A stretch of 64,000 nucleotides of DNA. Origin: Planobispora longispora. GTDB taxonomy: Bacteria > Actinomycetota > Actinomycetes > Streptosporangiales > Streptosporangiaceae. The translations under genes and the position numbers were made by a program. Positions 21,986 to 42,879 of the stretch are shown here, in pieces; position 1 is the first letter of the stretch; each line of letters starts with the position of its first letter. Under the pieces are notes generated by a model. The model was not told the origin of the DNA, searched no databases, and saw only the letters and a list, made by a program, of their open reading frames with translations. Location of the stretch: NCBI RefSeq assembly GCF_016863135.1, contig NZ_BOOH01000011.1, positions 43,141 through 107,140 of the forward strand. Direction: 5' to 3'.

Positions 21986-22879
21986 TCAGGCGAGGACGCG
22001 GCCGACCACGCGGGCGTACATCCGGCCCGGGCTGGGCACCGAGGGCGGGGTGAGGAAGCCGGGGAGCATGGGGAGGTCCACGGCGAAGGGCTGCAGGCGC
22101 TCGTAGAGCGCCTCGACCCCGGCGGGGCGCCGGTCGGGATTCTTCTCCAGCAGGTCGGCGAGGAGACGGTTCAGCTCGGCGGGGACGCCGGGCACCGGCG
22201 GCGGGCGCTCCTTCACCTGCCGCTCGAACACGGCGTACTCGGTGGGGCCGGTGAACAGCTGCCTGCCGGTGAGCATCTCGTGGATCATGCAGCCCAGGGC
22301 GTACAGGTCGCTGCGCGGCCCGGCCAGGCCCCGCTGGATCTGCTCGGGCGCCATGTAGGACGGGGTGCCCAGGAGCTGGCCGATCCGGGTGAACCGGGTG
22401 GAGTCGGCCTCCCGGAGCATCGCCAGGCCGAAGTCCAGGACCTTGACGCTGCCGTCGGGGCAGAGCATCAGGTTGGTCGGCTTGAGGTCGCGGTGGTAGA
22501 TGGACAGCGCGTGGGCGGCCGAGAGCACCGCGCAGGCCTGGGCCGCGATCGCGGCGGCCCACGGCACCGGGAGCGGGCCGTGCTCGCTGACCAGGTCGGC
22601 CACGGTGACGCCCTCGATGAACTGCATCACCTGGAACAGGCGCTGGTCGAAGGTGCCGAAGTCGTACAGGACCGGGGCGCCGGGGTGCTCCAGCCGGGCC
22701 AGGATGCGGGCCTCGCGCATGAAGCGCCGCTCCAGCTCCTCGTCGGGGCCGGTGAGCAGGCGCATGATCTTGACGGCCACCCGGCGGTCGAGGTGTTTGT
22801 CATGACCGGCGTAGACCGCGCCCATCCCGCCCTGCCCCAGAGGGAGGTCGTCGAGAACGTAGCGGTCGCCGATGACCAT
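21986..22879 (-). CDS. Ser/Thr protein kinase, kinase domain only (297 aa)
   Basis: Gly loop LGQGGMGAVY, Lys in VAVKIM, catalytic loop HRDLKPTNLM, DFG (LDFGLA) and APE (SYMAPE). No sensor or TM domains. Starts 24 bp after the MTase stop. Confidence 0.85.
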   Translation of the reverse strand: MVIGDRYVLDDLPLGQGGMGAVYAGHDKHLDRRVAVKIMRLLTGPDEELERRFMREARILARLEHPGAPVLYDFGTFDQRLFQVMQFIEGVTVADLVSEHGPLPVPWAAAIAAQACAVLSAAHALSIYHRDLKPTNLMLCPDGSVKVLDFGLAMLREADSTRFTRIGQLLGTPSYMAPEQIQRGLAGPRSDLYALGCMIHEMLTGRQLFTGPTEYAVFERQVKERPPPVPGVPAELNRLLADLLEKNPDRRPAGVEALYERLQPFAVDLPMLPGFLTPPSVPSPGRMYARVVGRVLA

Positions 22880-22903: not shown

Positions 22904-24889
22904 CTAACCCCCCTGGCCGCACGGTCTCAGATGGCCGTCGGCCAGTCCATCAAAGCCTAGCCGGATCAAGGTCTCGCCCAGTGCCGCCGTCTCGCGCAAC
23001 CGGTCCTCCATCGCGGCCAGTTCCCGGAACGCCTCGCCGTAGCGCCGCTGCTCGGCCACCGGCAGCACCGGCACCCGGGCCCGGCGCACGTCGAGCCGGC
23101 TGGAGCTGGAATGCACGCGCGAGGAGTCCGCGGAGCGGAGGAACCCGGCGAGGAAGTGCGGGTCGAGCCGCTCCGGGTCCACCCGGTAGAGGGTGAGCTG
23201 CGGCCCGAGCGCGGCGCCGGCTTCGGCCACGGAGTCGGCGACCACCCGGACCGCGCCCAGGACGGTGGTCACGATGTCACCCGGGCCGACCATGACCAGG
23301 GCCGGGTCGGGAACGGTCCCGCCGGAGGGCGGCGTTCCCGCGGCGGCGTCCTCGGCCGTCAGGACCGGGACGGGCCCGGAGTCGGCGGTCAGCTTCGACG
23401 GGGCCGCCAGGATGGTGACCAGCCCCGCCTTGACCAGCTCGCCGACCGTCGTGGTGGGCAGCTCCTGCCGTTCGGTCAGCGTCTCCAGCTCCGGAGGGGA
23501 CTTCGGCAGCGCGGCCGACGCCTCCCGGAAGCGGTCGAGGGCGGCGGTGAAGTCGCGGGCGAAGTCCATCCCGCCCTGCTGCGGGCGGTGCCGCCCCGTG
23601 GCGAGGTCCACCTCGTCGTCGAGCAGGTCGATGATCCGCACGGTACGGCTGTCGCCGGTCAGCTCGGCCTCGGGATCCGCGGTGAAGGCGCGCCAGGCCG
23701 GTTCCACGACCGACAGGTCCTCACCGGCGTCCACCATCAGGACCTGCGACGGGGGCCGCTCGCCGGCCGGGCGGCGCAGCAGCCACAGGTCGGGGCCGCC
23801 CGGTCCCAGGGAGATCACCGCGCGGAGCGCCCCGGCCCGCAGCAGGTTTCCCCGGATCCGCTTGCCGGGGCGGCGGCTGGCCGCCGCGGCGGGCATCAGG
23901 ATCGCCACCAGGCCGCCCGGCCGCACGTGGGCCAGGCAGTGCTGCACCCAGGCGAGCTCCGGCTCGCTGCGCGGCGGCAGGCCGTACTCCCAGCGGGAGT
24001 CGCCGGTCAGCTCGTCGTAGCCCCAGGCCCGCTCGTTGAACGGCGGGTCGCAGAGCACCGCGTCGGCGAGGGCGCCGGCCAGGCCGTCCTCACGGAGCGA
24101 GTCTCCGGCCACGATCCGGGCCGGCGCCCCGCGCAGCAGCAGCCGCACCGCGGTGAGCAGGGCGTTCGTCTCACTGAGTTCCTGGCCGAGCGGGGTGTTC
24201 GCGCCCAGCAGGAGGGTGCCGACCCCGCAGGCGGGGTCCAGCACGGCGCCGCCGCCGGCCAGGCGCGTCATGAGCGCGGCCACGTCGTCCCTGGTGACCG
24301 AGAGCTGGCGGGAGTGCACCTCGACGTAGCGGGCGCAGAGGAACTCGAACGCGTCCAGCGGCCCGTTCTCCCGGGCCAGCCGGGAGACCAGCCGGAGCAG
24401 CGCGGGGTCGTGCGGCCGGAGGTCGGGCGCGCGCGGCAGGTCGGCCGTGGTGGCCGCCACCAGTGTGGCGAGGGAGGGCGCGTCGCGGTCGCCAGAGGAG
24501 CGGGAGCCGTCCCCGACGGGGGAGGGCCAGATGCGGCGGTCGCCGGAGAGCACCCGCGGGCCGTGCTCGCGCCAGCTCTCGGGGTCGCGGTGGAGGGAGA
24601 GCAGGAAGACGCCGACCTGTCCGACCAACTCGCCCAGGCGCAGGTCGTCGACCGCGGTCCGCATCCGCTGCCAGACTAGGTCGCCGAGGGAGACTTCGAA
24701 GGACTTGCCGTTGCCGCGCAGCCACGCGGTGACCTCGGACAGGGAGAAGAGGGGGCTGGAGGCGGTTCCGCCGATCGGCTGGGGGAAGTCATCGTGACGG
24801 CGGCGCCAGTTGCTCACCGCCGCCCGGCCGACATCGGCGAACCGGGCGATGTCGCCCGCGTTCACGGTGATCTCCTGGCTCTCCTCCAT
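22904..24889 (-). CDS. N6-adenine DNA methyltransferase fused to an N-terminal HTH and a C-terminal HsdS-like target-recognition domain (M-S fusion; no nuclease domain)
   Basis: Motif I VLDPACGVGTLL and motif IV LCDPPFNERAWGY (gamma-class DPPF). N-terminal HTH DIARFADVGRAAVSNWRRR. C-terminal TRD ends with ...VPVLPVAEQRRYGEAFRE, the HsdS-like conserved tail. An alternative GTG start at ~24865 has a better RBS (AGGAG). Confidence 0.8.
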   Translation of the reverse strand: MEESQEITVNAGDIARFADVGRAAVSNWRRRHDDFPQPIGGTASSPLFSLSEVTAWLRGNGKSFEVSLGDLVWQRMRTAVDDLRLGELVGQVGVFLLSLHRDPESWREHGPRVLSGDRRIWPSPVGDGSRSSGDRDAPSLATLVAATTADLPRAPDLRPHDPALLRLVSRLARENGPLDAFEFLCARYVEVHSRQLSVTRDDVAALMTRLAGGGAVLDPACGVGTLLLGANTPLGQELSETNALLTAVRLLLRGAPARIVAGDSLREDGLAGALADAVLCDPPFNERAWGYDELTGDSRWEYGLPPRSEPELAWVQHCLAHVRPGGLVAILMPAAAASRRPGKRIRGNLLRAGALRAVISLGPGGPDLWLLRRPAGERPPSQVLMVDAGEDLSVVEPAWRAFTADPEAELTGDSRTVRIIDLLDDEVDLATGRHRPQQGGMDFARDFTAALDRFREASAALPKSPPELETLTERQELPTTTVGELVKAGLVTILAAPSKLTADSGPVPVLTAEDAAAGTPPSGGTVPDPALVMVGPGDIVTTVLGAVRVVADSVAEAGAALGPQLTLYRVDPERLDPHFLAGFLRSADSSRVHSSSSRLDVRRARVPVLPVAEQRRYGEAFRELAAMEDRLRETAALGETLIRLGFDGLADGHLRPCGQGG

Positions 24890-24973: not shown

Positions 24974-25771
24974 ATGGCACAAAACGAAGGACTGGCACTG
25001 CGCTACGCCGCCCGCTCCGACGTCGGGGTCCGCCGTGAGGCGAACGAGGACTCGGGCTACGCGAGCGCCCGCCTGCTCGCCGTCGCCGACGGCATGGGCG
25101 GCCACGCCGGGGGCGAGATCGCCAGCTCGCTCGCCGTCGCCGCCGTGGCAGCGCTGGACGACAGTCTTCCGAATACCGGTGTCGACCTCAAGGCCGCGCT
25201 GAAAGGCCTGGCCAAGGACATCAACCAGGCGTTGCGCGACACGGCCGAGCGGGAGCCCGCGCTGCGCGGGATGGGCACCACCCTCACCGCGATGCTCTGG
25301 GACGGCGACATGTTCGCCCTGGCCCACGTCGGCGACTCCCGTGCCTACATGCTGCGCGACGGCGCCCTCTACCAGATCACTCACGACCACACCCTCGTCC
25401 AGTCGCTGGTGGACGACGGGCGGATCACCCCCGAGCAGGCGGCCGAGCACCCGCGCCGGTCGATGGTCCTCCGCGTGCTGGAGGGCACCGGCGACGGCGA
25501 GCTCGACCTGACCCTCCGCGAGGCCCAGCCGGGCGACCGCTACCTCATCTGCTCCGACGGCCTGACCGCCGTCGTCGGCCCGGAGACCCTCTTCAACACC
25601 CTCACCGAGATCGACGAGCCCGACGAGGTCGCCCGCTGGCTGATCGACCTGGCCAACCGGGGCGGCGGCCCCGACAACATCACCTGCATCGTGGCCGACT
25701 TCGGCGCGCACGACGCGGGCGCGGAGCGGTTCGTCGTCGGCGCCGCGACGGAGCGCAAGCTCACCCCCTGA
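24974..25771 (+). CDS. PP2C-family Ser/Thr phosphatase (paralogue 1)
   Basis: LRYAARSDVGVRREANEDS, AVADGMGGHAGGEIAS, GMGTTLT and DGxxD...GGPDNITC are PP2C motifs. No obvious SD sequence. Confidence 0.85.
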   Translation: MAQNEGLALRYAARSDVGVRREANEDSGYASARLLAVADGMGGHAGGEIASSLAVAAVAALDDSLPNTGVDLKAALKGLAKDINQALRDTAEREPALRGMGTTLTAMLWDGDMFALAHVGDSRAYMLRDGALYQITHDHTLVQSLVDDGRITPEQAAEHPRRSMVLRVLEGTGDGELDLTLREAQPGDRYLICSDGLTAVVGPETLFNTLTEIDEPDEVARWLIDLANRGGGPDNITCIVADFGAHDAGAERFVVGAATERKLTP

Positions 25772-25793
25772 CGGCCGCCTTCAGGAGTCCCGG

Positions 25794-25815
25794 GCGGACG
25801 GCCGGCGGCGGCCGT
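25794..25815. terminator. GC hairpin between convergent PP2C and giant ATPase genes
   Basis: GGACGGCC-ggcggc-GGCCGTCC, an 8-bp stem between the stop at 25771 (+) and the stop at 25818 (-). Confidence 0.45.
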
Positions 25816-25817
25816 CC

Positions 25818-28800
25818 TCAGGCCTCCCGGGCGGGCAGCCGGTGGTGACGGCCGTTCTCCGGGATGCCGGACAGGCGGTCGGCGGCCTGCTCGATGGCGG
25901 TGCCGACCCGGTCGGCCAGCAGGCCGACCGCGCCGACGGCCCGGGTCACCGGGTCGTCTTCGGCGCCGCCGAGCGCCCTGGCCCGCACATAGGCGGCCTT
26001 CACCTCCGCCCACCGCTCGGCCTGCCCGGCGGTGAGCCTGCCGCGCAGCTCGGCCAGCTTCAGCAGGTTGGCCTCGGTCCCGGACGTGAGGGTCTGGGCC
26101 TCGCCGAGATAGTGATCGTCGATGACGGCCTCCAGCTCGTCGTCGTTCATCACCGGCACGACCCGCGCGGCCAGCTTGGTCATGTTCCGGTAGGACCCCT
26201 GGAGCTGGAACGGCGGCTCGGTCCTGGCGGCGTCGGACTGGGCGGCCGAGGCGATGTAGGCCCGGTTGACGGTCAGCACCACCCGCTGGACGCGGAGCAG
26301 CTTGCGCAGCACTGCGAGGACCTGCTCCAGCTCCACCTGCGAGTACGGGTGGGAGAGCCGGTCGGCGCGGACGGCGGGATCGCCCTGCGCGAGCCGTACC
26401 AGCAGGCGTACGTCGTCGCGCTCCCGGGTGGACAGCGGGGCGAGGACCGGGTTGGAGGTCAGCGCCGTGTCGATGTAGCTCAGCGCGAACAGCTCCTCCC
26501 GGCCCGAGAGCACGTCGCCGAGGTTCCAGACGTCGGCGCGGTTGGCGAGCATGTCGGGGACGCGGAACCGGCTGCCCGACTCGGTGTACGGATTGCCCGC
26601 CATGCAGACCGCGAAGCGCTTGCCGCGCAGGTCGTAGGTGCGGGCCCGGCCCTCCCAGACGCCCTCCACGCGGCGCTGGGCGTCGCACAGCGAGATGAAC
26701 TTCTGCAGCAGCTCGGGGGAGGTGTGCTGGATGTCGTCGAGGTACAGCAGCACGTTGGAGCCCATCTCCAGGGCGAAGTTGATCTTCTCGACCTCCTGGC
26801 GCGCGGTCGCGTCGGGGGCGTCGGCCGGGTCGAGCGAGGTGACCCTGTGGCCCAGCGCCGGGCCGTCCACCTTCACGAACATCAGGCCGAGGCGGTCGGC
26901 GACGTACTCCATCAGCGTCGTCTTGCCGTAGCCGGGCGGTGAGATGAGCAGCAGCAGGCCCATCTGGTCGGTCCGCTCGGCCGCGCCGGTCGCGCCCAGC
27001 TGCTTGGCCAGGTTGTCGCCGATGAGGGGGAGGTAGACCTCGTCGAGGAGCTGGTTGCGGACGAAGGCGCTCATCACCTTCGGCCGGTACTCCTCCAGGC
27101 GCAGCCGCTCGCGCTCGGCGGCGACCAGGGCGTCGCGCCGCTTCAGGTAGGACCGGTAGGCCGGCGCCCGGCGGGTCCCGAACTCCCGGGTCCTGGCGAG
27201 GAACTCGTCCAGGCGGATCGCGAGCCGGCCGCCGGCGATGCGCGGGTGCGTGCCGAGCAGGCCCTCGACGGTCGCGGTCAGCGCGGCCGACGAGTCGTGC
27301 CGGGGCAGCTCGCACAGCCGTACGGCCACCGCCTCGGGCAGCTCGCGGAGCTCGCGGAGCTCGGGCGAGCGCCCGAACGCGCCCAGCCACGCCTCGGCCA
27401 GCCGGTGCCGCCCCGGCAGGTCGCCCTCCAGGGCCCGCAGGTCGTTCTCGAACTCCTGACCCGGAGCCCCCGGGCCCCGCGAGCTCCGCGAGCTCCGCAG
27501 CGCCCGCTCGAAGCGGTCGAGCAGCGTCCTGGCCCCGACGCTCGTCACGAATCCGGGCGGGTCGCCGGCCAGTTCCTCGAACAGGTACTCCCCGGCGAGC
27601 TCGATATCGCCCTCGCCGTACGGCGCCGGCGCGCCGTCCGATCCGGGCGCGCCGCGCAACGCGGACACGAAGGACCCGACGGCGCGGGACAGGGCCCGGC
27701 AGGTCTCCCCGACCGCCTCCACCCGCCCGAACAGGGACCGCGCCCGCGCCAGCGAGGCCGCCTTCGTGGTCCACGACGCGCGGGCCGCCTCGTCGGTCCC
27801 GTGCGCCCAGAACAGCTGGGCGGCGGCCCGCGCGGACGGGGGATAGCGCAGCAGGCCCGCCCCCGCGTGCAGGCGGAGCAGGGCGCGGAGGATCAGCGCG
27901 GCGTCGTGGTCGTGGACGCCGCGCTCGTAGCCCTCGTCGTAGCGGGTCTCCGCCACCCCGCGGACGATCTCCGGCAGTTCCCCCCCGGCCGGCGCCGCCT
28001 CGTGGAGCGCGGTGAGCGAGATCGCCCTGTCGCCCAGGAGCAGCGTCCCGGCCTCGGCGGCGGCCAGGATCGAGGCGGCGAGGTGCTCGCCGCGGTAGAC
28101 CTCCGGCGACTCCGAGACCAGCAGCTGGGTCCAGAAGGGCCTGGTCGCCGCGAAATCGGGGTCCCGGACGGGGGAGCGGTAGCCGGTCCCGGTGACGGCG
28201 AAGGCCATCCCGTCCCCGTGCGGGACCAGCGTCAGATCGGCGGGCCGGGTGGTGACCGCGAACCGGTGCCGGCCCAGCCGGATGGTCTCGCCGCCGTCGG
28301 CGTACAGGTCGAGCCGGTCGCGCAGGGCACGGCCCGCCTCCTGCCGGGCCGCGGCGATCCGGCCGTCCAGCTCCTCGGCGCGCACCTGGTCGCCCAGCGC
28401 GCGCAGCTCCCCGGCCACGGAGCGCAGCTTGGCCACCATCGGGTCGGCGGCGAAGTAGGTGTTGACCTCGTCGAGCGAGCCCAGCGAGGCCAGGCGGCGG
28501 CGCACGCTCGCCAGGATCCGGGCCGCGGAGGAGGCCAGCCGGTCGGCGCGGCGGGCCCGATCGTCCAGCAGGGCCTGGCGGCGGGAGGAGAACGCCTCGT
28601 AGACGTCCTCCCGCTTGGAGGCGAGCCGGGCGAGGAAGTCGTCGAACTCGGCGAAGCGCGACTCCAGTGTCTCCAGCCGGAGCATCAGCCGGCCGAGCTG
28701 CTCCTCGCACCGCTCGGGGGTGTCGGCCACGGCCAGCGCCCCGGTGATCGCCTGCCCCAGCAGGGCGAACTCGGCGGCGAAGGCCGCGCGGCCCTCGGAG

Positions 28801-30920
28801 CCCAGCAGTTCCCGCCGCCGCGCCTCCAGCGTGGCCCGGGCCCGGTTGATCCCGCCGAGCACCGCGCCGACCCGCTCCAGGATCGCGGTGCGCACGGTCG
28901 CGTCGGCGATGTCGAGCGTGCCGACCACCTCGATCACGACTTCCAGGCCCTGGGACTGCCCGGCCAGCCGCTCGCCGAGCGGGCCGGCCCCGGCCGTGGC
29001 GGTGATGGCCCCGGCCTCGGCGACCAGCCGCTCGATCTCGGCGTGGTAGCCGGCGAAGGCGTCCTCGCCCTGGAGGAAGGCCACGGCCCGCCGCGCCGTG
29101 CCCGTCAGCTCGGACTCCAGCTCGGCGTCGATCCGGTCGATCCGACCGAGGTCCGCGTAGCGCAGCTCGCGCAGGGTCACCAGGCGTCCCCGCGCCCTGC
29201 GGAGCTCGGCGAGGCGGTCCACCCACCCCTGGGCGGAGCGGGGCGCCGCGGCCCGCGCCCGCCGTACGAGGGAGGCGGTCTCCTGCGCCGCCTCCTCCAG
29301 GGCGGCCGCCGCCTGGGCGGTGAGCGACTGGACCTTCTCGAACTCCTCCAGCACCTGCTCGGCCGTGGCCCGCACGTCGGCCAGCGGCCCGCTCAGCTCG
29401 TGCTCGCCCAGCCAGTGATAGTGGTCGGACACGCGGACGCAGGCCGCGATCAACGCCTCGAAGACGGGGACCGAGGGCGCCATCTCCTCGACGGCCGCGG
29501 TCACCGACAGGCAGTCGGAGATCCCGCGCACCAGCTCGGCGTTGCCGATCCGCTCCAGCGGGCCGGTCCCCACCGGCTGGGCCGCGGCGTAGACGTCGGA
29601 GGTGTACGGCGTCTGCCACACCTGCATCGGGTGGACCCGGGCGGGCTCCTCCGAGACGGCCCGGAACACCACCAGCGTCCCGTCGTCGAACAACGAGTAG
29701 CCGTGGCAGGGGATCGGCGTGGCGACCTGCTTGCGGATCACGTTGTACGGCAGCAGCAGCGACCGGCCGTCGGAGCGGGCGTGGAACACGTACAGCACGT
29801 CCTCGCCGTTGGCCGAGCGGATGACCCGCTCGAACTCCAGGCCGGCGACGTCGGTGTCGAAGGTCTTGCTCACCCCGGTGGACAGGTGGTAGCCGCCGGG
29901 GAAGATGATCCCCTGGTCCTCGGGGAGCCGCCGGCAGGCCTGGCCGATGCCGTCCAGCCGCACGACGTCCTTGGTCCGGGTGTTGAAGACCAGGTGCCGC
30001 CAGCCGGTCTCGTTGTAGGGCCGGACGCGCAGCAGGATCAGCGGGCCGACCCGGGCGTGCAGCACCTCGGCGTCGGCGAGGCTCTGCAGCGGCTCGGCCA
30101 CCGGCTCGCGGTAGACGCCCTCTCCGGTCTCGGTGTTGTTCTCGATCTTGATGGTGAGGTCGCCGCCGACGGTCTCGACGAACACCTCGCCCTGGATCGA
30201 GATGTGCGGGTGCCGCCCGAGGACGTGGTCGTCGCGGGTGGTCGCGGTCCACTCGAAGTCGTGGGACGGCGGGAACACGTGGTCGCGCTCGCCCCGGTCG
30301 TCGATGTAGGCCAGCGAGCCGTCCGCGCCGACCTGCCAGCGCAGCACCCTGATGTCCTGCGGGCCGGTCCGGAAGACGGCCAGCATCTTGCCCTCGACGC
30401 GGCGCAGCTGCAGCAGCCGGGTGTCGCGGTAGTAGCGGTAGAGCTCGGCGAAGTCCTCCTCGAACCGCGGGTCCCGGACCATCGGCGCGGGCTCGAACCG
30501 GAAGGCGTCGCCGTCCCGGCTGAAGCGGTGCGCGGAGAAGACGTCCTCGACGGTCGTCTCCGGCTTCAGCCCGATGAACACGTTGTAGCCGAACAGCATG
30601 AGGTCGCCGATCGACACGATGTCGCGGGGCACGCAGTTGTTCTCGGTGCGGATCCGCTCGGCGCCGATCAGGCGGAGCTCGGTCCCGCCGAACGCCTCCA
30701 GGCGGCGGGCGTTGAGCGTCTCGGCCCGCCGGGCCAGCTCCGCCGCCTGCTCGGCGAGCCGGGCGCGGAGCACCTCGTAGGTGCCCGCGTCCAGCCCCTG
30801 CCCCGCCCCGTCCAGCCGCTGCTCCGTCCCGTCCGGCGCAGTCGTCCCGGTCGTCGCAGTCGTTCCGGTCGTCCCGGTCTCTGCGGTGGTCACGTCCGTG
30901 CTGGTCACGTCTGGGGTCAC
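25818..30920 (-). CDS. giant (~1,700-aa) protein: low-complexity Thr/Gly N-terminus, large coiled-coil/helical middle, C-terminal AAA+ (MoxR/dynein-like AAA_5) ATPase module
   Basis: Walker A LLISPPGYGKTTL, Walker B VLLYLDDIQ and sensor-1 CMAGNP. Long Ala/Arg/Glu/Leu-rich heptad-like stretches. GTG start overlaps the flotillin stop (GTGA). Confidence 0.8.
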   Translation of the reverse strand: MTPDVTSTDVTTAETGTTGTTATTGTTAPDGTEQRLDGAGQGLDAGTYEVLRARLAEQAAELARRAETLNARRLEAFGGTELRLIGAERIRTENNCVPRDIVSIGDLMLFGYNVFIGLKPETTVEDVFSAHRFSRDGDAFRFEPAPMVRDPRFEEDFAELYRYYRDTRLLQLRRVEGKMLAVFRTGPQDIRVLRWQVGADGSLAYIDDRGERDHVFPPSHDFEWTATTRDDHVLGRHPHISIQGEVFVETVGGDLTIKIENNTETGEGVYREPVAEPLQSLADAEVLHARVGPLILLRVRPYNETGWRHLVFNTRTKDVVRLDGIGQACRRLPEDQGIIFPGGYHLSTGVSKTFDTDVAGLEFERVIRSANGEDVLYVFHARSDGRSLLLPYNVIRKQVATPIPCHGYSLFDDGTLVVFRAVSEEPARVHPMQVWQTPYTSDVYAAAQPVGTGPLERIGNAELVRGISDCLSVTAAVEEMAPSVPVFEALIAACVRVSDHYHWLGEHELSGPLADVRATAEQVLEEFEKVQSLTAQAAAALEEAAQETASLVRRARAAAPRSAQGWVDRLAELRRARGRLVTLRELRYADLGRIDRIDAELESELTGTARRAVAFLQGEDAFAGYHAEIERLVAEAGAITATAGAGPLGERLAGQSQGLEVVIEVVGTLDIADATVRTAILERVGAVLGGINRARATLEARRRELLGSEGRAAFAAEFALLGQAITGALAVADTPERCEEQLGRLMLRLETLESRFAEFDDFLARLASKREDVYEAFSSRRQALLDDRARRADRLASSAARILASVRRRLASLGSLDEVNTYFAADPMVAKLRSVAGELRALGDQVRAEELDGRIAAARQEAGRALRDRLDLYADGGETIRLGRHRFAVTTRPADLTLVPHGDGMAFAVTGTGYRSPVRDPDFAATRPFWTQLLVSESPEVYRGEHLAASILAAAEAGTLLLGDRAISLTALHEAAPAGGELPEIVRGVAETRYDEGYERGVHDHDAALILRALLRLHAGAGLLRYPPSARAAAQLFWAHGTDEAARASWTTKAASLARARSLFGRVEAVGETCRALSRAVGSFVSALRGAPGSDGAPAPYGEGDIELAGEYLFEELAGDPPGFVTSVGARTLLDRFERALRSSRSSRGPGAPGQEFENDLRALEGDLPGRHRLAEAWLGAFGRSPELRELRELPEAVAVRLCELPRHDSSAALTATVEGLLGTHPRIAGGRLAIRLDEFLARTREFGTRRAPAYRSYLKRRDALVAAERERLRLEEYRPKVMSAFVRNQLLDEVYLPLIGDNLAKQLGATGAAERTDQMGLLLLISPPGYGKTTLMEYVADRLGLMFVKVDGPALGHRVTSLDPADAPDATARQEVEKINFALEMGSNVLLYLDDIQHTSPELLQKFISLCDAQRRVEGVWEGRARTYDLRGKRFAVCMAGNPYTESGSRFRVPDMLANRADVWNLGDVLSGREELFALSYIDTALTSNPVLAPLSTRERDDVRLLVRLAQGDPAVRADRLSHPYSQVELEQVLAVLRKLLRVQRVVLTVNRAYIASAAQSDAARTEPPFQLQGSYRNMTKLAARVVPVMNDDELEAVIDDHYLGEAQTLTSGTEANLLKLAELRGRLTAGQAERWAEVKAAYVRARALGGAEDDPVTRAVGAVGLLADRVGTAIEQAADRLSGIPENGRHHRLPAREA

Positions 30921-33085
30921 TCCTGGACCGTGTCGACGACGGAGCCGCCGGCGGTGATCGGGGCACCGCCGTCGCCCAGGATGTCCACGGCCGCCACGGG
31001 GGTCATGGCGGGCGCCGTGGTCGTCACGGTGGACGCGGGGCTCAGCAGTTCGCGCAGCTTCTGCGACTCCGCGCCGCCGCCGTTCATCAGCTTGACCAGC
31101 AGGGCCGAGAGCGACAGGTCCCGCACGTCGCCGCTGCCCAGCGAGCCGAGCGCCCGGGTCAGGTCGGCGGGCAGGCTCTGCGTCCCGTCCAGGTACGGCC
31201 CGGCGAGCGTGCGGGCCACGTCGGAGCTGTCCACGAAGCCGTCCAGGCTCTTGCCCAGGGTGACCGAGCCGACCAGCTTGTCGAAGAACACGCTGTCGCC
31301 GCCGACGATGTCGATGTTGGCCTTCTCCAGTCCGGCGGCCAGCACCACGGCCTGCGCCTCGGCGAGCTTGACCTGGGAGGTGACGCCGGCGAGCCGGATC
31401 TCCTTCTCGGCCTCCAGCCGCAGGCGGTACTCCTCGTGGCCGCGGCTCGCGTCGTCGAGCGCCGCCAGCGCCGCCGCCTTCTCGGTCAGGCCCTCGGCCT
31501 CCGCCTTCAGCTTCTCGCCGATCGTCGCGGCCGCGGCCAGCGCCTTCTCCCGCTCGCCCTCGGCCTCGGCCTTGAGCTTCTCGCGGATCGCGGTGGCGAC
31601 GGCGTGCGCCCTGGCCTGCTCGCCCTCCGCGGCGGCCAGCGCCTTCTCCCGCTCGACCGCGGCCTCGGCGCGGCCGACCTTCTCGATCGCGGCGGCGTTG
31701 CGCTCGGCGACCTGGACCTCGGCCAGGCCGACCGCGGCGGCCTCGGCCTGGACGCCCTCGGCCAGGCGGATCTTGGCGCGGGCGTCGAGCTCGGCGGCCT
31801 GCTGGCGCGACTCGGCCATCACCAGCGCCTCGCGCGCCTTGTACTTGGAGGCGGCCTCGGCGGCCTCGGCGGCCTTGATGTCCTTGACCAGGTTCTCCTG
31901 GGACTCCGCCTCGGCCTGGATGATCACGGCCTGGCGGGTCCGCTCGGCCTCCTCGACCACCCGCAGGCGCTTGATGCTCTCCTCCTGCTCGGCGACGGTC
32001 TTCTCGACCGCGATGCGCTCCCGGACCACCTCGGCGATCGAGCGCTTCTCGCCCTCGAGCTCCTTGTCCTTGGCGATGCGCGACAGCTCGGTCTCGCGCT
32101 CGCGGGAGATGACCTCCAGCATGCGGTCCTTCTCGATGCGCTCGCTCTCGATGGCGATGACCCGCTCGCGGTTCTTGGCCGCCACGGCGATCTCGCGGGC
32201 CTGGTTCTCCTGCTGGATGCCGAGCTGCTCCTGGGTGCGCAGGTCGGCGGCGTGCGCCTTGAGCCGCTCCTCGGCCTGGACCCGGGCGATCTCCGCCTCC
32301 TCGCGGGCCCGCATGGTCTCGATCTCGCGCTTCTGCTTGATCTCCGCGTCGGTCTGGCGCCGCTGCAGTTCGAGGATCGCCTCGCGGGCGTCCACGTTCT
32401 GGCGGGTGATCTCCTTCTCCTCGCGCCGCTGGAAGTCGTTGGTCCGCACGTGCTCGATCGCGGTCAGCTCGGTGATCTTCCGGATGCCCTGGGCGTCGAG
32501 GATGTTGTTCTTGTCGAGGGAGAGCAGCGAGGTCTGCTCCAGGTAGTCGATCGCCGCGTCCTCGAGGCTGTAGCCGTTCAGGTCGGTGCCGATCACCTGG
32601 ATGATCTGGTCGCGGAAGTGGTCGCGCTGGGTGTAGAGGTCGACGAAGTCGAGCTGCTTTCCGACGGTCTTGAGCGCCTCGGAGAACTTGGCGCTGAACA
32701 GCTCCTGCAGCGTCTCCTGGTCGCTGGCCCGGGCGGTGCCGATCGCCTGCGCGACCTTCACCACGTCCTCGGCGGTCTTGTTGACCCGGACGAAGAACGT
32801 GATCTTGATGTCCGCCCGGATGTTGTCCCGGCAGATCAGGCCCTCGCGGCCGGACCGTTCGATCTCGATGGTCTTCACCGAGATGTCCATGACCTCCGCC
32901 CGGTGGAGCACGGGCAGGACGACCGCCCCGGTGAAGGTGACGTCGACCTTGTTGACCTTGGAGACGATCAGGGCCTTGCCCTGTTCGACCTTGCGGAACA
33001 GGCGGGTGACCGTGATCACCATGGCGATGGCGACGAGGAGGACGACGGCGAGGAGCACGCCGAAGCCGGTGGAGATGACGTCCAT
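30917..33085 (-). CDS. flotillin (SPFH/band-7 domain, FloT/YuaG-like) with long EA-rich coiled-coil
   Basis: N-terminal TM (GVLLAVVLLVAIAMVI) and SPFH core. An extended ...AEAEGEREKALAAA... repeat region is typical of flotillins. Confidence 0.9.
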   Translation of the reverse strand: MDVISTGFGVLLAVVLLVAIAMVITVTRLFRKVEQGKALIVSKVNKVDVTFTGAVVLPVLHRAEVMDISVKTIEIERSGREGLICRDNIRADIKITFFVRVNKTAEDVVKVAQAIGTARASDQETLQELFSAKFSEALKTVGKQLDFVDLYTQRDHFRDQIIQVIGTDLNGYSLEDAAIDYLEQTSLLSLDKNNILDAQGIRKITELTAIEHVRTNDFQRREEKEITRQNVDAREAILELQRRQTDAEIKQKREIETMRAREEAEIARVQAEERLKAHAADLRTQEQLGIQQENQAREIAVAAKNRERVIAIESERIEKDRMLEVISRERETELSRIAKDKELEGEKRSIAEVVRERIAVEKTVAEQEESIKRLRVVEEAERTRQAVIIQAEAESQENLVKDIKAAEAAEAASKYKAREALVMAESRQQAAELDARAKIRLAEGVQAEAAAVGLAEVQVAERNAAAIEKVGRAEAAVEREKALAAAEGEQARAHAVATAIREKLKAEAEGEREKALAAAATIGEKLKAEAEGLTEKAAALAALDDASRGHEEYRLRLEAEKEIRLAGVTSQVKLAEAQAVVLAAGLEKANIDIVGGDSVFFDKLVGSVTLGKSLDGFVDSSDVARTLAGPYLDGTQSLPADLTRALGSLGSGDVRDLSLSALLVKLMNGGGAESQKLRELLSPASTVTTTAPAMTPVAAVDILGDGGAPITAGGSVVDTVQE

Positions 33086-33097
33086 GGATTCCCTCGG

Positions 33098-33745
33098 CTA
33101 GATGGGACGGTGGGGGTCGAGTTCCGCGTCGTACGGCATCACCCAGAAGAATTCGCCGCCGGAGTCGTAGGCGAAGATCAGGGCGGTGCTTCCGGCGAGG
33201 AAGACGTCGTCGCCGGTCTGTCGGACTTGTACGAGAGCGGAGGACCCGTCGGGAGCGGTGACCTCGGCCTGGCCGAAGTCCCCTCCCACCCGGCCCGTGC
33301 GGATGACGCAGGTGCGGCCCACGAAGTCGGCGCGGGACGGCGCGCGCTCCTTGCGCGCGACGCGCCGCAGGGGCAGCGTCAGCAGGCGGGTGCCGAGCCA
33401 GGCGCAGCCGATCGCCGCGACGGGCACGGCGGCCAGGGCGGCCGTGCCGGTGATGAGGGCGGACCCGGCGAGGCTGGCGAACCAGGCGATGGCGACCAGC
33501 AGCGAGACGGTCACCGAGACCGGCACCCCGCCGAGCCCGAGGCCCGCCAGGAAACCCGCCGCGCCCGAGAGCTCCGCGTCGCCGATCGCGTCGTCACCCG
33601 CGACGCCGTCGCCCGCCGCGTCGTCGAGCACGGCGCCGCCGAGAAGGGCGAGCAGCCAGTAACCGACCACCACGATCAGCGGGAAGGTGAACAGAACGGT
33701 CGGGAACGACAGCGCGGTCTCGGTGAAGCTGCCCAACTGGCCCAT
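33098..33745 (-). CDS. NfeD-like membrane protein (YuaF-like, OB-fold C-terminus)
   Basis: Multiple TM helices then a C-terminal beta-rich soluble domain. Immediately upstream of flotillin on the same strand, as in nfeD-floT operons. ATG at 33745 chosen because the upstream in-frame extension is AT-rich and non-coding-like. Confidence 0.7.
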   Translation of the reverse strand: MGQLGSFTETALSFPTVLFTFPLIVVVGYWLLALLGGAVLDDAAGDGVAGDDAIGDAELSGAAGFLAGLGLGGVPVSVTVSLLVAIAWFASLAGSALITGTAALAAVPVAAIGCAWLGTRLLTLPLRRVARKERAPSRADFVGRTCVIRTGRVGGDFGQAEVTAPDGSSALVQVRQTGDDVFLAGSTALIFAYDSGGEFFWVMPYDAELDPHRPI

Positions 33746-33899
33746 CGATGCGGAAGATCTCCCTGTCCGGTGTGCTCGCCTGCTCCCCCGAGCGTGTGGC
33801 TTCACCCGGATAAAGAATGAGTAAAAGAAATAGTTCCCGAAGCCTGAAAAATCTGGATATGCGAGGGACGGGAGGGGTGGAAGGGGGGCGCGGGAGAGC

Positions 33900-34066: not shown

Positions 34067-34831
34067 CTACGGGGCGGCCGAGCCGACGATCAGGGGAGTG
34101 TTCTGGACGGAGTCCGGCTCGTCGACCACGTCGGCCACGACACAGGTGATGTTGTCCGGGCCGCCGCCCTCGCAGGCGAGATCGATGAGCGTGCGGATCA
34201 CGGTGTCGAGATCGTCGATCGTGGCCAGCACGTGGCGGAGCTGCTCGGCCTCCACCACGCCGGACAGGCCGTCGGAGCAGAGCAGGTAACGGTCTCCCAC
34301 CTCGGCGTCCCGCAGCGACAGGTCGGCCTCGACGCCGTCGCTGCCGTCCAGGACCTGGAGCAGGATCGACCGGTGGGGATGCCGGGCGGCCTCCTCGGCG
34401 GTGATCCGGCCGTCGTCCATCAGGGTCTGGACGAGCGTGTGGTCGTAGGTGATCTGGTAGAGGTCGCCGTTGCGCAGCAGGTAGGCGCGGGAGTCGCCGA
34501 TGTGGGCGAGCGCGACGCGCGGGCCGTCCCAGAGCATCAGCGTCAGGGTGGTGCCCATCCCGGTGAGACTGGGATCCTGCTCGGTCAGCTCCCGCAGCCG
34601 CTGGTTGGCCCGGCGGACCCCGCTCTCGGCGGCGGCGACCAGATCGGAGGGGGGCTCGTGGTCCAGGGGTGAGATGGCCGCGACAGCGGCCGAGCTGGCG
34701 ACCTCCCCGCCGACGTGCCCGCCCATGCCGTCGGCGACGGCGAGCAGCCGGACACCGGCGTAGGCGGCGTCCTCGTTGCCCTGGCGGACCTTGCCGACAT
34801 CGGAACCCGCCGCGTAGCGGAGCGTGATCAT
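34067..34831 (-). CDS. PP2C-family Ser/Thr phosphatase (paralogue 2)
   Basis: MITLRYAAGSDVGKVRQGNEDA, AVADGMGGHVGGEVAS, GMGTTLT and GGPDNITC. Roughly 65-70% identical to paralogue 1 by eye. The larger track ORF upstream is antisense to prfC. Confidence 0.85.
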   Translation of the reverse strand: MITLRYAAGSDVGKVRQGNEDAAYAGVRLLAVADGMGGHVGGEVASSAAVAAISPLDHEPPSDLVAAAESGVRRANQRLRELTEQDPSLTGMGTTLTLMLWDGPRVALAHIGDSRAYLLRNGDLYQITYDHTLVQTLMDDGRITAEEAARHPHRSILLQVLDGSDGVEADLSLRDAEVGDRYLLCSDGLSGVVEAEQLRHVLATIDDLDTVIRTLIDLACEGGGPDNITCVVADVVDEPDSVQNTPLIVGSAAP

Positions 34832-40503: not shown

Positions 40504-40590
40504 CCCACGACCGGGACCGCACGATCCCCGAAGACTCCGCCGCCACCGGAGGCCATCTCGGCCGGTGGCGGCGGAGGCCGTTGTCGGCCC

Positions 40591-40845
40591 TCAGGGGCGA
40601 CGGCGAGAGAACAGGCGTGCCCTGCGCCGGGCACGCCTGAACCAGGCGATATCGAACCGCCCACGCCGTACGGCCCGCACGAAGGCTGCCCACTCGTCAG
40701 CAGTGAACGTCAGGACCGATCCGGTACCGTCGTCCTTGCTGTCGCGCACCCCCACTCGGCTGCCGTCGAAAGCCAACTCCACACAGCTTCCGCCGTTGCA
40801 CGGCCGGTGCCAGGCGCTGGGGTTGAACGGAGTTTTCCCCGTCAT
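40591..40845 (-). CDS. DUF397 domain protein (copy 1, C-terminally extended)
   Basis: SAWHRPCNGGSCVELAFDGSRVGVRDSKDDGTGSVLTFTADEWAAFVRAVRRGRFD fits the DUF397 pattern (W.KSS.C..G.CVEVA...VRDSK...G..L.F....W.AF). RBS GGGAGAG. Confidence 0.65.
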   Translation of the reverse strand: MTGKTPFNPSAWHRPCNGGSCVELAFDGSRVGVRDSKDDGTGSVLTFTADEWAAFVRAVRRGRFDIAWFRRARRRARLFSRRRP

Positions 40846-40936
40846 GCGCTCTCCCGAAAAGATCGACTACACGGAGATGGGGCGCAATGTCGGAAGTATC
40901 ATAATATACGTTTTTATAAATTTAATGTCTCTTTTA

Positions 40937-40969
40937 GGTGTTAAAGGTACCGGGGTCGAGGGAGTCGGC
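40937..40969. terminator. 9-bp stem hairpin downstream of DUF397 copy 2
   Basis: GGTACCGGGG-(13 nt)-CCCCGGTACC, followed on the minus strand by CTTTAA and AT-rich sequence. Confidence 0.45.
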
Positions 40970-40990
40970 CCCGGTACGGCGCCGGACCCG

Positions 40991-41203
40991 CTAAGAGGGG
41001 TCGTGTTCCCCCTGCTTGACGGCCCAGATGAACGTCGCCCACTCACTGTGGGAGTACGTCAGCGTGCCATTGTCCGGGGCCTTGGAATCCCGGACGGCGA
41101 TCAAGTCTCCGGTGAAGGCGACTTGGACACAGTTTCCTCCGTTGCAGTGGGAGGAAGTGTGCCACTCCAGTGAAGGAGTGCCGGGACTTTGCGGTGAGCC
41201 CAT
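40991..41203 (-). CDS. DUF397 domain protein (copy 2, 70 aa)
   Basis: LEWHTSSHCNGGNCVQVAFTGDLIAVRDSKAPDNGTLTYSHSEWATFIWAVKQGEHD. ATG has AGGAG 5 nt upstream; the track TTG extension was rejected. Confidence 0.75.
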   Translation of the reverse strand: MGSPQSPGTPSLEWHTSSHCNGGNCVQVAFTGDLIAVRDSKAPDNGTLTYSHSEWATFIWAVKQGEHDPS

Positions 41204-41478
41204 TGAAACTCCTGGGGTCGGATGGAACAATGATGCTTCTTAGTTCAGGAGTTTTCAGAGCCGATCAACATTCGGTGATCAGCGATGTCGCAGACTTGAC
41301 CTCTGCGTACGTAAAAGGTGTCGTCACCGAGATCGCGGTTCCCTGTGCCCGGTCGGTGGGTCGCTGCCGCCGAGGTCGGGTGCTTATTTTACAAGGTTGC
41401 CTGCTGAATTCCGGGTGGATGTGTTCTGTAAATTATTGGACTGTGCGGCCTGGGTTCCGTAGAATCAGCCCGCGTGAC

Positions 41479-41509
41479 GAGCCGAGGCCCGTACGGAAGG
41501 CCTCGGCTC
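41479..41509. terminator. perfect 11-bp stem hairpin downstream of DUF397 copy 3
   Basis: GAGCCGAGGCC-cgtacggaa-GGCCTCGGCTC. Confidence 0.45.
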
Positions 41510-41524
41510 TACTATCGCCCCGCG

Positions 41525-41737
41525 TCAGAGGCGCCCGTATCTATTAGTCTTGACGTCCATGATGAACGCGCGCCACTCGTCGTGTGAATAGCGCAATACG
41601 GGGCTGCCTGAGATTTTGGAGTCACGAACGAGCACGAGGTCATCGCCTATGGCGACCTCGACGCAGCCTCCCCCGTTGCAGTGACTTGACTTGTGCCAAG
41701 CTTCTGTCAAAAAGTGGACATTCTCTGGAGCTGTCAT
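41525..41737 (-). CDS. DUF397 domain protein (copy 3, 70 aa)
   Basis: EAWHKSSHCNGGGCVEVAIGDDLVLVRDSKISGSPVLRYSHDEWRAFIMDVKTNRYG. ATG has AGGAG 5 nt upstream. Confidence 0.75.
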   Translation of the reverse strand: MTAPENVHFLTEAWHKSSHCNGGGCVEVAIGDDLVLVRDSKISGSPVLRYSHDEWRAFIMDVKTNRYGRL

Positions 41738-41817
41738 CGATTCTCCTGTCGACTCTGGAATACTGGCCACCTCTCCAGGCAGCTCTTCGAGCGACATGTG
41801 TCCACTTGCGTGTCTGC

Positions 41818-42678: not shown

Positions 42679-42879
42679 CGCTTCACCGCCCTCCTGATGC
42701 CGCCAGCGCACTGTACTCCCAGGTGGAAGTCGATATTACCGCGTTAGCATGATCCTTCGGCAAGAACCTACGGAAAATTCTGCTGGCAAGTTTTCCTGGT
42801 AATTTCCATCTGTAGGTTGCCACAGGTACAAACCAGGGTAAAAATACATAAAGGCCCTGGTGGGCGGACCTTCAAGGGG

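Follow-up and report, generated by a model that had tools for sequence, protein, structure and literature searches.

SPFH proteins assemble into cages at the membrane that enclose AAA+ machines or regulate them, as in the HflK/C-FtsH pair, to which the prohibitin/m-AAA and stomatin/NfeD-protease pairs are analogous. The known flotillin partners FtsH, KinC and PBP2a are loosely associated and species-specific, and the role of bacterial flotillins is, to our knowledge, still debated. Among the MoxR-type ATPases, which normally work with a VWA partner, RavA decorates a large cage-like assembly, LdcI. SPFH2-NfeD2 operons have been described, including yqiJ-yqiK of Escherichia coli and yuaF-floT of Bacillus subtilis (Hinderhofer et al., 2009; PMC2636767); HflK/C face the periplasm and YqiK-type proteins the cytoplasm (PMC2636767). 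According to one study, flotillin microdomains confine unfolded proteins in Staphylococcus aureus (PMC11222466).

The window analysed here, a stretch of 64,000 nucleotides from Planobispora longispora, contains three co-directional minus-strand ORFs in the order A-B-C. As in yqiJ-yqiK and yuaF-floT, the gene of a small multi-pass membrane protein precedes one for an SPFH protein of the flotillin type; the E. coli operon, however, lacks a third gene of the gene C kind. The three genes are best explained as a self-contained, vertically inherited cassette with the following features.

33801–33860, minus strand: AT-rich candidate promoter/operator upstream of gene A (…TTCGGGAAC-N17-CTTTATCC…; sequence reading)
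33098–33745, minus strand: gene A, 215-aa membrane protein, YqiJ/DUF1449-type, NfeD2-like (translation and names of homologues)
33380–33721, minus strand: gene A, three hydrophobic, putative transmembrane segments, aa ~9–122 (Kyte-Doolittle scan, alignment A4)
33131–33328, minus strand: gene A, small, putatively beta-rich and OB-like C-terminal domain, aa ~140–205 (conserved block in alignment A4)
33086–33097, minus strand: A-B spacer of 12 nt with Shine-Dalgarno-like GAGGGA (sequence reading)
30917–33085, minus strand: gene B, 722-aa YqiK-type flotillin (SPFH2) with a family-specific C-terminus
32987–33085, minus strand: gene B, N-terminal membrane anchor, aa 1–33 (one hydrophobic segment, aligning with the YqiK N-terminus)
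32441–32983, minus strand: gene B, SPFH domain, aa ~35–215 (hhalign to YqiK, Band_7 in orthologues)
31286–32440, minus strand: gene B, Ala/Glu-rich helical (coiled-coil) region, aa ~216–600 (composition; partly aligns with the YqiK coiled coil)
30920–31285, minus strand: gene B, conserved C-terminal region, aa ~601–722, distinct from the Pfam Flot domain and found only beside gene C
25818–30920, minus strand: gene C, 1,700-aa soluble DUF3686/AAA+ protein, labelled 'DNA repair ATPase' by NCBI; alternative annotated start at 30815
30801–30920, minus strand: gene C, non-conserved Thr/Gly-rich linker, aa 1–40, including the GTG that overlaps the TGA of gene B (composition)
29415–30740, minus strand: gene C, DUF3686 domain, aa 61–502, predicted N-terminal helix and beta-propeller-like domain
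26991–29558, minus strand: gene C, predicted helical array of ~850 residues, three-helix-bundle/spectrin-like, aa ~455–1310
26331–26963, minus strand: gene C, AAA+ alpha/beta core, aa ~1320–1530, with a predicted beta-hairpin before sensor 1 (AF2, Foldseek, Pfam)
26916–26942, minus strand: gene C, Walker A SPPGYGKTT, aa 1327–1335 (at least 90% conserved or invariant in 20 homologues, down to 30% identity)
26724–26750, minus strand: gene C, Walker B LLYLDDIQH, aa 1391–1399, DD in place of DE (D1395 and D1396 at least 90% conserved)
26532–26603, minus strand: gene C, sensor-1/arginine block MAGNPYTESGSRFRVPDMLANRAD, aa 1440–1463 (N1443 at least 90% conserved, R1461 invariant)
25851–26330, minus strand: gene C, predicted helical lid and C-terminal helices, aa ~1531–1690, with invariant R1566 and R1578 (AF2 model)
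25772–25814, minus strand: tentatively, a GC-rich hairpin after the gene C stop (fold −28.2 kcal/mol)

A Shine-Dalgarno-like stretch of 12 nt (ccgagggaatcc) lies between the TAG of gene A and the ATG of gene B, and the TGA of gene B (30919–30917) overlaps a GTG at 30920–30918, giving GTGA at 30917–30920. The first-pass annotation of this DNA had read both the 12-bp spacing and the shared stop/start in the same way, and the NfeD/flotillin/giant-protein gene unit that it proposed is borne out by the conservation of A, B and C together across loci. It had gone on to claim translational coupling and 'stoichiometric co-production', which does not hold as a system-wide property: a 4-nt overlap of the B stop and C start is possible in only about 12 of 78 loci, and Streptomyces loci have B-C gaps of 70–230 nt and ATG starts, so that neither coupling nor stoichiometric co-production is general. 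The start of gene C is ambiguous. NCBI annotation of the source assembly places it 35 codons later, which gives a protein of 1,665 aa; in the nearest relatives, from Streptosporangium (L003 and L068), the overlapping GTG is kept and the alignment runs from the gene B stop onward, which favours the earlier GTG as the probable start.

The candidate promoter/operator motif is common to two Streptosporangium and two Nonomuraea loci (alignment A7), and a sigma-70 consensus scan upstream of gene A gave no match. At the operon end, a terminator scan found nothing and the hairpin does not stand out from shuffled sequences (z −1.7); this end is also marked by a PP2C gene that runs convergently and stops at 25771. 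Scans of the window for Rfam families and tRNAs gave no hit.

PDB sequence searches with profiles of genes A and B returned nothing, and their window copies have no match in Pfam, NCBIfam, PADLOC or PHROGs. The labels 'NfeD' and 'flotillin' therefore required independent tests, and we drew the identity of both proteins from profile comparison with E. coli YqiJ and YqiK and from scans of orthologues. For gene B, whose homologues are named flotillin, SPFH or YqiK in databases, hhalign of profile A1 against YqiK gave a probability of 99.6% (E 2e-24, 30% identity over 417 columns), with an alignment that covers the membrane anchor and the SPFH domain and reaches into the beginning of the coiled coil (to aa ~459; aa 216–600 contain 21% A and 18% E). 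Pfam Band_7 matches 4 of 16 gene B orthologues (best 1.5e-10), the window copy not being among them. The designation 'flotillin' stands for the YqiK-like profile, the anchor, the SPFH domain and the coiled coil, but not for the C-terminus: the Flot domain (PF15975), which E. coli YqiK matches at 6e-41, has no Pfam match in gene B and 15 orthologues, and the gene B C-terminus does not align with YqiK aa 380–553. A different, family-specific conserved region takes the place that the Flot domain has in canonical YqiK. When aa 540–722 of gene B were compared by tblastn with 72,556 plasmid records (7.3 Gb), 12 records matched, in all of which the match lies directly upstream of a gene C homologue.

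The gene A product matches a Planobispora longispora protein at 100% identity, and its homologues carry the database names DUF1449, OB-fold-containing or YqiJ family. It shares with YqiJ these names and probably its layout, three hydrophobic segments followed by a conserved C-terminal beta-type block with a putative OB fold and the motif VGRxCxV…FGQAEV…GSxALIF (alignment A4). YqiJ is, however, undetectable from gene A by BLASTP and only weakly similar by profile, with a colinear hhalign match between the gene A C-terminus and the YqiJ OB region (E 0.006, probability 6%), and a Pfam scan of 15 gene A orthologues with the NfeD (PF01957) and YqiJ (PF21001/PF07290) models gave no match.

Conservation of gene C extends along the entire protein, in homologues as distant as ~30% identity, and its predicted make-up is a linker, a propeller-like domain, helical bundles and one MoxR/RuvB-like AAA+ module. 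The Thr/Gly-rich N-terminus noted earlier is evident in aa 1–40 (38% T, 15% G), and alignments of homologues start at query residues ~17–48. Next comes a complete DUF3686 domain (PF12458; E 3.2e-220, 731.7 bits, model positions 1–448 of 448), in which residues ~61–502 are predicted to be beta-rich and propeller-like rather than coiled coil, with a propeller-like domain of ~400 residues. Where the first-pass annotation described about 900 residues of coiled-coil-like sequence, the helical region is predicted as an array of ~850 residues, which includes DUF7902 (PF25472; aa 620–704; E 1e-29) and is broken up by a small beta domain at aa ~879–917; the propeller-like domain had been overlooked. 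When the N-terminal 1,165 residues were searched by fold, all matches were weak and generic, namely to three-helix bundles, to propellers of the WD40 type and, at low TM scores, to proteins that join a propeller to a solenoid; we claim no homology from them. A Kyte-Doolittle scan detects three hydrophobic segments in A, one in B and no membrane segment in C, and the earlier picture of a 'raft-anchored' giant ATPase is to be read as an inference.

The single C-terminal AAA_5-like module, recognised earlier from GYGKT, DD and a sensor-1 N, is upheld by Pfam AAA_5 (27.5 bits, cut-off 22) and by structure comparison. An AF2 model of this region (pLDDT 84) predicts an alpha/beta core and a helical lid, and Foldseek searches of the PDB with the core point to NorQ (E 4e-7), RuvB, CbbQ2, MCM and Lon/Clp, the values for NorQ, CbbQ2, RuvB and MCM ranging from 1e-6 to 1e-7; a PDB sequence search with gene C returned AAA matches at the level of the P-loop only. 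Motif conservation, scored over 20 diverse gene C homologues down to ~30% identity, reveals no degeneration of Walker A, Walker B or sensor 1; degenerate Walker motifs, like missing linkage to flotillin in other genomes, would have refuted the first-pass annotation, and neither was observed. The sensor-1 motif reads MAGNPYTESG, and the block around it is similar to that of the MoxR family, whose motif ATQNP…LPEAQLDRF we take as the model for R1461, which would be the arginine finger. Catalytic competence is putative, and with the DD variant of Walker B the ATPase kinetics may be atypical.

In genome and metagenome scans, 138 loci have an upstream flank of 2.6 kb or more; they belong to Actinomycetota, Myxococcota, Acidobacteriota, Gammaproteobacteria, Deinococcus and Hymenobacter or come from metagenomes. 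Gene B lies upstream of gene C on the same strand in 136 of them, a linkage to flotillin that the first-pass annotation had proposed to check in other genomes; it is near-obligate across several phyla, and the two genes co-vary (r = 0.93 between their identities). B and C diverge smoothly in step with taxonomy, their identity falling from 84% within the family to ~50% across phyla; gene C shares 84% identity with its Planobispora takensis counterpart. Gene A is upstream of B in at least 104 of the 136 loci, with divergent equivalents elsewhere (e.g., L141 and L084), and is missing from ~13 Streptomyces loci. The cassette occurs in most actinomycete genera sampled, and Proteus mirabilis, Vibrio campbellii and the Pseudomonas fluorescens plasmid pQBR103 have the A-B-C order too. 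The giant protein, earlier called 'unusual', is not so in the sense of rarity: its family numbers more than 6,000 database proteins, occurs in at least 589 species-representative genomes and already has the catalogue names DUF3686 and 'DNA repair ATPase'.

Around gene C in 80 genome loci, tblastn of the window's flanking genes and all-against-all ORF clustering found no conserved neighbours besides A and B, and no VWA/MIDAS partner gene; other ORF clusters that looked conserved turned out to be shadow ORFs within B and C. In pQBR103 a membrane-stress cluster (PspA/IM30-YjfKLMC-like) immediately precedes the cassette; this cluster is absent beside the cassette in all other loci; we set aside a general PspA link as a hint from this single locus.

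We tentatively favour a role for gene C in the cytoplasm as an AAA+ protein dedicated to a specialised flotillin scaffold, which it would remodel or chaperone, probably in a context of membrane organisation and envelope-stress maintenance rather than DNA repair. Gene B, anchored by its single N-terminal membrane segment, would form a flotillin/YqiJ assembly with gene A, and gene C, probably an AAA+ ring, would dock through its propeller and helical arm on the cytoplasmic face of this assembly, most likely at the special C-terminal region of B. ATP hydrolysis could then remodel the assembly by assembling, disassembling or opening it or, alternatively, serve to process client proteins held within it, much as HflK/C works with FtsH, RavA on the LdcI cage and Vps4 on ESCRT-III. 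The specific form in which a gene C ring caps a flotillin-YqiJ dome via the B C-terminus and powers its opening, its disassembly or client extraction is possible but doubtful. The missing VWA partner speaks against a remodeller, as do gene C without a nearby B at L092 and L135, the Streptomyces loci without gene A, the DD variant of Walker B and the restriction of the PspA neighbourhood to one plasmid.

Gene C could also be a general MoxR-like chaperone of another membrane complex, for instance a respiratory enzyme or one of the cell wall, with flotillin merely co-expressed under envelope stress and no direct complex between them. NorQ and CbbQ, its closest structural matches, are maturation chaperones for other enzymes, and B-C spacing varies, with genes inserted between B and C at L159, L117 and L123. 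We nevertheless regard this as unlikely: the linkage in nearly all loci and the gene C-specific C-terminus of B are hard to explain by co-regulation alone, and there is no third conserved gene for a client or a VWA adaptor.

The database names instead suggest a DNA-repair or DNA-translocating ATPase, for example a membrane-tethered motor for segregation, uptake or conjugation with flotillin only as a platform. 'DNA repair ATPase' and 'ATPase involved in DNA repair' are the NCBI/Pfam labels, RuvB and MCM, both DNA motors, are among the structures that the AAA+ core resembles, and the 'DDIQ' of Walker B recalls, as we see it, DnaA. Yet Pfam, NCBIfam and fold searches detect no DNA-binding, nuclease or helicase domain in gene C, the RuvB matches are limited to the generic P-loop (22.9 bits against a family cut-off of 282), the sole conserved neighbours are two membrane proteins and we found no paper backing the label, all of which makes such a motor highly improbable. 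An anti-phage or conflict system, in which an NTPase propeller sensor triggers a membrane-perturbing SPFH/NfeD effector and abortive infection, is very unlikely as well, even if giant NTPases that sense through repeats or propellers are a hallmark of defence systems, the cassette is present on some megaplasmids and, in the window, a gene for an N6-methyltransferase follows 1 kb downstream. PADLOC and PHROG gave no significant match (best IetA, E 0.003, P-loop only, and mad8, E 0.05), the taxonomy-following identity of B and C looks vertical, unlike patchy defence islands, the flanks are neither conserved nor defence islands, and no nuclease, protease or toxin effector is present. Nothing supports a role of the cassette in DNA repair or phage defence.

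If a gene C ring does act on a flotillin-YqiJ dome in this way, it would give SPFH scaffolds their first dedicated AAA+ remodeller, a counterpart of Vps4 in the ESCRT-III system, and its layout of propeller plus helical repeats would loosely recall eukaryotic membrane-coat proteins. A flotillin subfamily with a near-obligate, co-evolving, operon-encoded ATPase offers a concrete handle on bacterial flotillin function, with direct questions (whether C binds the B C-terminus, whether ATP drives a change in flotillin assembly, what builds up without C) and genetically tractable hosts (Streptomyces, Myxococcus, Proteus mirabilis, Vibrio campbellii and P. fluorescens with pQBR103).

Our literature search found no paper describing a flotillin/NfeD-type/AAA+ cassette or DUF3686 (PF12458). 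Gene C is a clear full-length member of the Pfam families DUF3686/DUF7902 (PF25472), whose Pfam/NCBI entries carry names without a tested function, and the name 'DNA repair ATPase', carried by thousands of database proteins, has no visible basis. Its core has its best structural matches in the MoxR family (NorQ/NorD, CbbQ/CbbO, RavA/ViaA) and passes the AAA_5 gathering score; gene C differs from that family in being about six times larger, with an added propeller and helical arm, in lacking a VWA/MIDAS partner gene, in its DD Walker B and in a sequence similarity that is marginal (E ~1e-6). The cassette resembles HflK/C-FtsH, prohibitin/m-AAA and stomatin/NfeD-protease in that, at the membrane, an SPFH scaffold is paired with an NfeD partner or an AAA+ machine. 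Unlike FtsH, however, gene C is soluble, has no protease domain and carries a MoxR/RuvB-like rather than a classic-clade AAA module, and in contrast to HflK/C-FtsH the pairing in the A-B-C cassette is operonic and near-obligate.

The first-pass annotation had placed an NfeD, flotillin and giant AAA+ operon at 25818-33745, and inspection of open reading frames confirmed three co-directional genes there, in a window with a G+C content of ~73%:

33745-33098, minus strand: gene A, YqiJ/DUF1449-type membrane protein, 215 aa counted from the ATG
33085-30917, minus strand: gene B, YqiK-type flotillin, 722 aa
30920-25818, minus strand: gene C, DUF3686/AAA+ protein, 1,700 aa

Both junctions are as originally described: 12 bp (ccgagggaatcc) separate the TAG of A from the ATG of B, and the TGA of B overlaps the GTG of C in the shared GTGA. 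Since the genes are co-directional with tight junctions, a PP2C gene converges on C and ends 46 nt past its stop, and a gap of 321 nt, which includes an AT-rich stretch, lies 5′ of A, the three genes look like a single transcription unit. Gene B is found on contig JBHMBU010000025.1 of the NCBI assembly GCA_042428725.1.

Scans for consensus promoters and terminators gave no match, and the hairpin 3′ of C was no better than shuffled sequence. The AT-rich element 5′ of A (33801-33860, minus strand) reads TTCGGGAAC…CTTTA…CTTTATCTGTATATAGTC, also written GGGAAC…CTTTATCTGTATATAGTC, and aligns with four Streptosporangium and Nonomuraea loci (L003, L068, L008 and L015). The L003 copy includes a perfect palindrome, ACAGAT-CTTT-ATCTGT, and a TATAGT hexamer, and the 3′ part of the element diverges in the window copy. 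This element is a candidate promoter/operator.

NCBI annotates C in the source assembly as a protein of 1,665 aa starting at 30815, 35 codons downstream of the GTG at 30920. The first 40 residues of the longer product, which are rich in Thr and Gly, are not conserved. The overlapping GTG is retained in the closest relatives, the Streptosporangium loci L003 and L068, in which the alignment runs from the stop of B onwards; this favours the upstream start at 30920, as first proposed, over 30815 in this lineage.

The linkage to flotillin, on which the operon proposal depended, is conserved. A genome scan with one genome per species recovered at least 589 relatives of C, and a metagenome scan started from the family's most distant members. 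Of the 138 loci that extend 2.6 kb or more upstream of C, 136 carry gene B upstream on the same strand, with a median distance of ~150 nt between the alignments, and the identities of B and C are correlated across loci (r = 0.93). Only ~12 of 78 loci allow the 4-nt overlap, and Streptomyces gaps between B and C are 70-230 nt. The scanned loci belong to Actinomycetota, Myxococcus, Corallococcus, Deltaproteobacteria, Acidobacteriota and one Clostridia MAG. Further loci, from plasmid and chromid records, are those of Proteus mirabilis, Vibrio campbellii, Halomonas, Photobacterium, Deinococcus, Hymenobacter and the Pseudomonas fluorescens plasmid pQBR103. Gene A was detected in 104 loci. Where tblastn misses it in distant loci, a membrane protein of 230-240 aa with the same C-terminal motif is encoded ahead of B. 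Some Streptomyces loci (L046 and about 12 others) truly lack A. Comparison of flanks and clustering of ORFs from the loci revealed no other conserved neighbour of the three genes.

The sole loci of the 138 without a flotillin gene within 4-8 kb upstream of C are L092 and L135, where the upstream ORF was read as sensor-kinase-like and Ser/Thr-kinase-like, respectively. In L046, a divergent 368-aa ORF, putatively a helix-turn-helix regulator, occupies the place of A (6449-7555). A few loci carry insertions of 0.5-2.3 kb between B and C: in the low-GC metagenome contig L159 (5714-7976), the inserted genes encode a membrane protein of 199 aa and a 338-aa protein that looked like a member of the YhcG/DUF1016 PD-(D/E)xK nuclease family, and comparable gaps of 0.5-1.2 kb occur in L117, L123, L155 and L161.

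The window copy of B had no match to Pfam, NCBIfam or PADLOC models. Database names of its orthologues are flotillin family, SPFH domain-containing or YqiK, and 4 of 16 orthologues match Band_7 in Pfam (best E-value 1.5e-10). Profile alignment of B with Escherichia coli YqiK (MG1655) gave a probability of 99.6% (E 2e-24, 30% identity) and covers membrane anchor, SPFH domain and the first part of the coiled coil. Unlike YqiK, B lacks the C-terminal Flot domain (PF15975), and no alignment with the YqiK C-terminus was obtained for its final ~250 residues. This region is strongly conserved among B orthologues, and a tblastn search of 72,556 plasmid and chromid records found it in 12, all 12 with a C homologue just downstream. 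The analysis shows that A, B and C form a conserved, self-contained module, and that the flotillin to which C is tied is a specialised one.

A Planobispora longispora database protein is 100% identical to A, which places the source of the window among the actinomycetes of the Streptosporangiaceae. Protein A has three hydrophobic segments followed by a conserved beta-type block at the C-terminus. BLASTP detected no similarity to YqiJ and searches of Pfam and the PDB gave no match; a profile comparison with YqiJ produced a weak but colinear match (E 0.006, probability 6%). Homologues are named DUF1449, OB-fold-containing or YqiJ family in their source databases. Even YqiJ and YuaF can hardly be recognised as the NfeD2 partners of SPFH2 flotillins (Hinderhofer et al., 2009; PMC2636767), so that the original label, in the form "NfeD-like", is by position and layout a reasonable, not a proven, description of A.

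Protein C matches DUF3686, described as "ATPase involved in DNA repair", at aa 61-502 (E 3e-220) and DUF7902 at aa 620-704 in Pfam, with weak matches to AAA_5, AAA, AAA_22 and RuvB_N at aa ~1310-1447. C has more than 6,000 matches among database proteins, so that the giant ATPase, initially considered unusual, is widespread and no rare oddity. Clustering at 50% yields 939 representatives, with full-length members of 1,600-1,900 aa down to 28% identity. When 20 diverse members are aligned, conservation extends over the full length and includes invariant R1461, R1566 and R1578 and three ATPase motifs:

Walker A: SPPGYGKTT
Walker B: LYLDDIQH, with DD, not DE
Sensor 1: MAGNPYTESG, with N1443

The ATPase motifs are therefore conserved, not degenerate. 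A hydrophobicity scan found no hydrophobic segment in C. AlphaFold2 models of aa 36-1200 (pLDDT 83) and aa 1161-1700 (pLDDT 84) predict, in order:

an N-terminal helix
aa ~83-436: beta-rich domain
aa ~455-872: long helices
aa ~879-917: small beta domain
to aa ~1310: further helices
then an AAA+ alpha/beta core with a beta-hairpin ahead of sensor 1, and a helical lid

Our reading of the N-terminal part of the models is a domain resembling a beta-propeller and, after it, an arm of helical bundles, with no homology claimed. The earlier layout (linker, coiled coil of ~900 aa, AAA) was incomplete: it missed the predicted globular domain of ~400 residues, and the helices, ~850 residues, are modelled as bundles and not as one coiled coil.

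Other features were observed around the module:

34067-34831, minus strand: PP2C-family phosphatase gene
24974-25771, plus strand: PP2C-family phosphatase gene
22904-24889, minus strand: 661-aa stand-alone N6-adenine methyltransferase-domain protein
21986-22879, minus strand: Ser/Thr protein kinase gene, directly after the preceding one
~40590-42680 (converted from cassette locus L001): G+C of 0.64-0.65 vs ~0.73, with an HTH_XRE/DUF5753 regulator gene, then three tandem DUF397 genes

The double PP2C flanking recurs in two Streptosporangium loci, not more widely, and the methyltransferase-kinase pair, ~1 kb downstream of the cassette, is kept in one Streptosporangium locus. Three alternative-frame ORFs, at 25540-30966 (minus strand, 1,808 aa), 27246-32546 (plus strand, 1,766 aa) and 31436-33820 (plus strand, 794 aa), were rejected as high-GC shadow ORFs; their apparent conservation in clustering is due solely to their position within B and C. 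On pQBR103 (L164; P. fluorescens SBW25, NC_009444.1, 85.5-101.5 kb), the cassette immediately follows, in the same orientation, a membrane-stress cluster resembling E. coli yjfJKLMC, with genes for PspA/IM30, rhomboid, DUF2491, DUF350, DUF1190 and glutathionylspermidine-synthase-like proteins. No other locus examined has a PspA/IM30 cluster beside the cassette; rhomboid homologues occur nearby in four metagenome loci.

"DNA repair ATPase" is the label of nearly all named proteins among the 120 matches to C listed, but in Pfam, NCBIfam and fold searches generic AAA+ similarity is its sole support, making a repair role a weaker explanation. A role in defence is also weaker: PADLOC, PHROGs and genomic context give it no support, and inheritance of the cassette tracks taxonomy. 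In Foldseek comparisons the AAA+ part came nearest to the MoxR chaperones NorQ and CbbQ2, with RuvB, MCM and Lon/Clp next (E 4e-7 to 1e-5). That C is an unrelated MoxR-type chaperone, merely co-regulated with flotillin, seems to us unlikely. We tentatively propose instead that C may be a dedicated cytoplasmic AAA+ partner of the flotillin. It would dock through the propeller and helical arm on the special C-terminus of B, and would spend ATP either on remodelling the flotillin scaffold or on processing the clients that the scaffold retains.

In databases, C already goes by DUF3686/"DNA repair ATPase", B by flotillin family and A by DUF1449, and NfeD2-SPFH2 operons are known as well. A full-text literature search found no paper on DUF3686 proteins or on their coupling with flotillin. 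The addition made here is a dedicated giant AAA+ third component of the flotillin-NfeD module, which offers a specific, testable handle on the function of bacterial flotillins. As possible functional analogues of the B-C pair, we propose HflK/C-FtsH, RavA-LdcI and Vps4-ESCRT-III.
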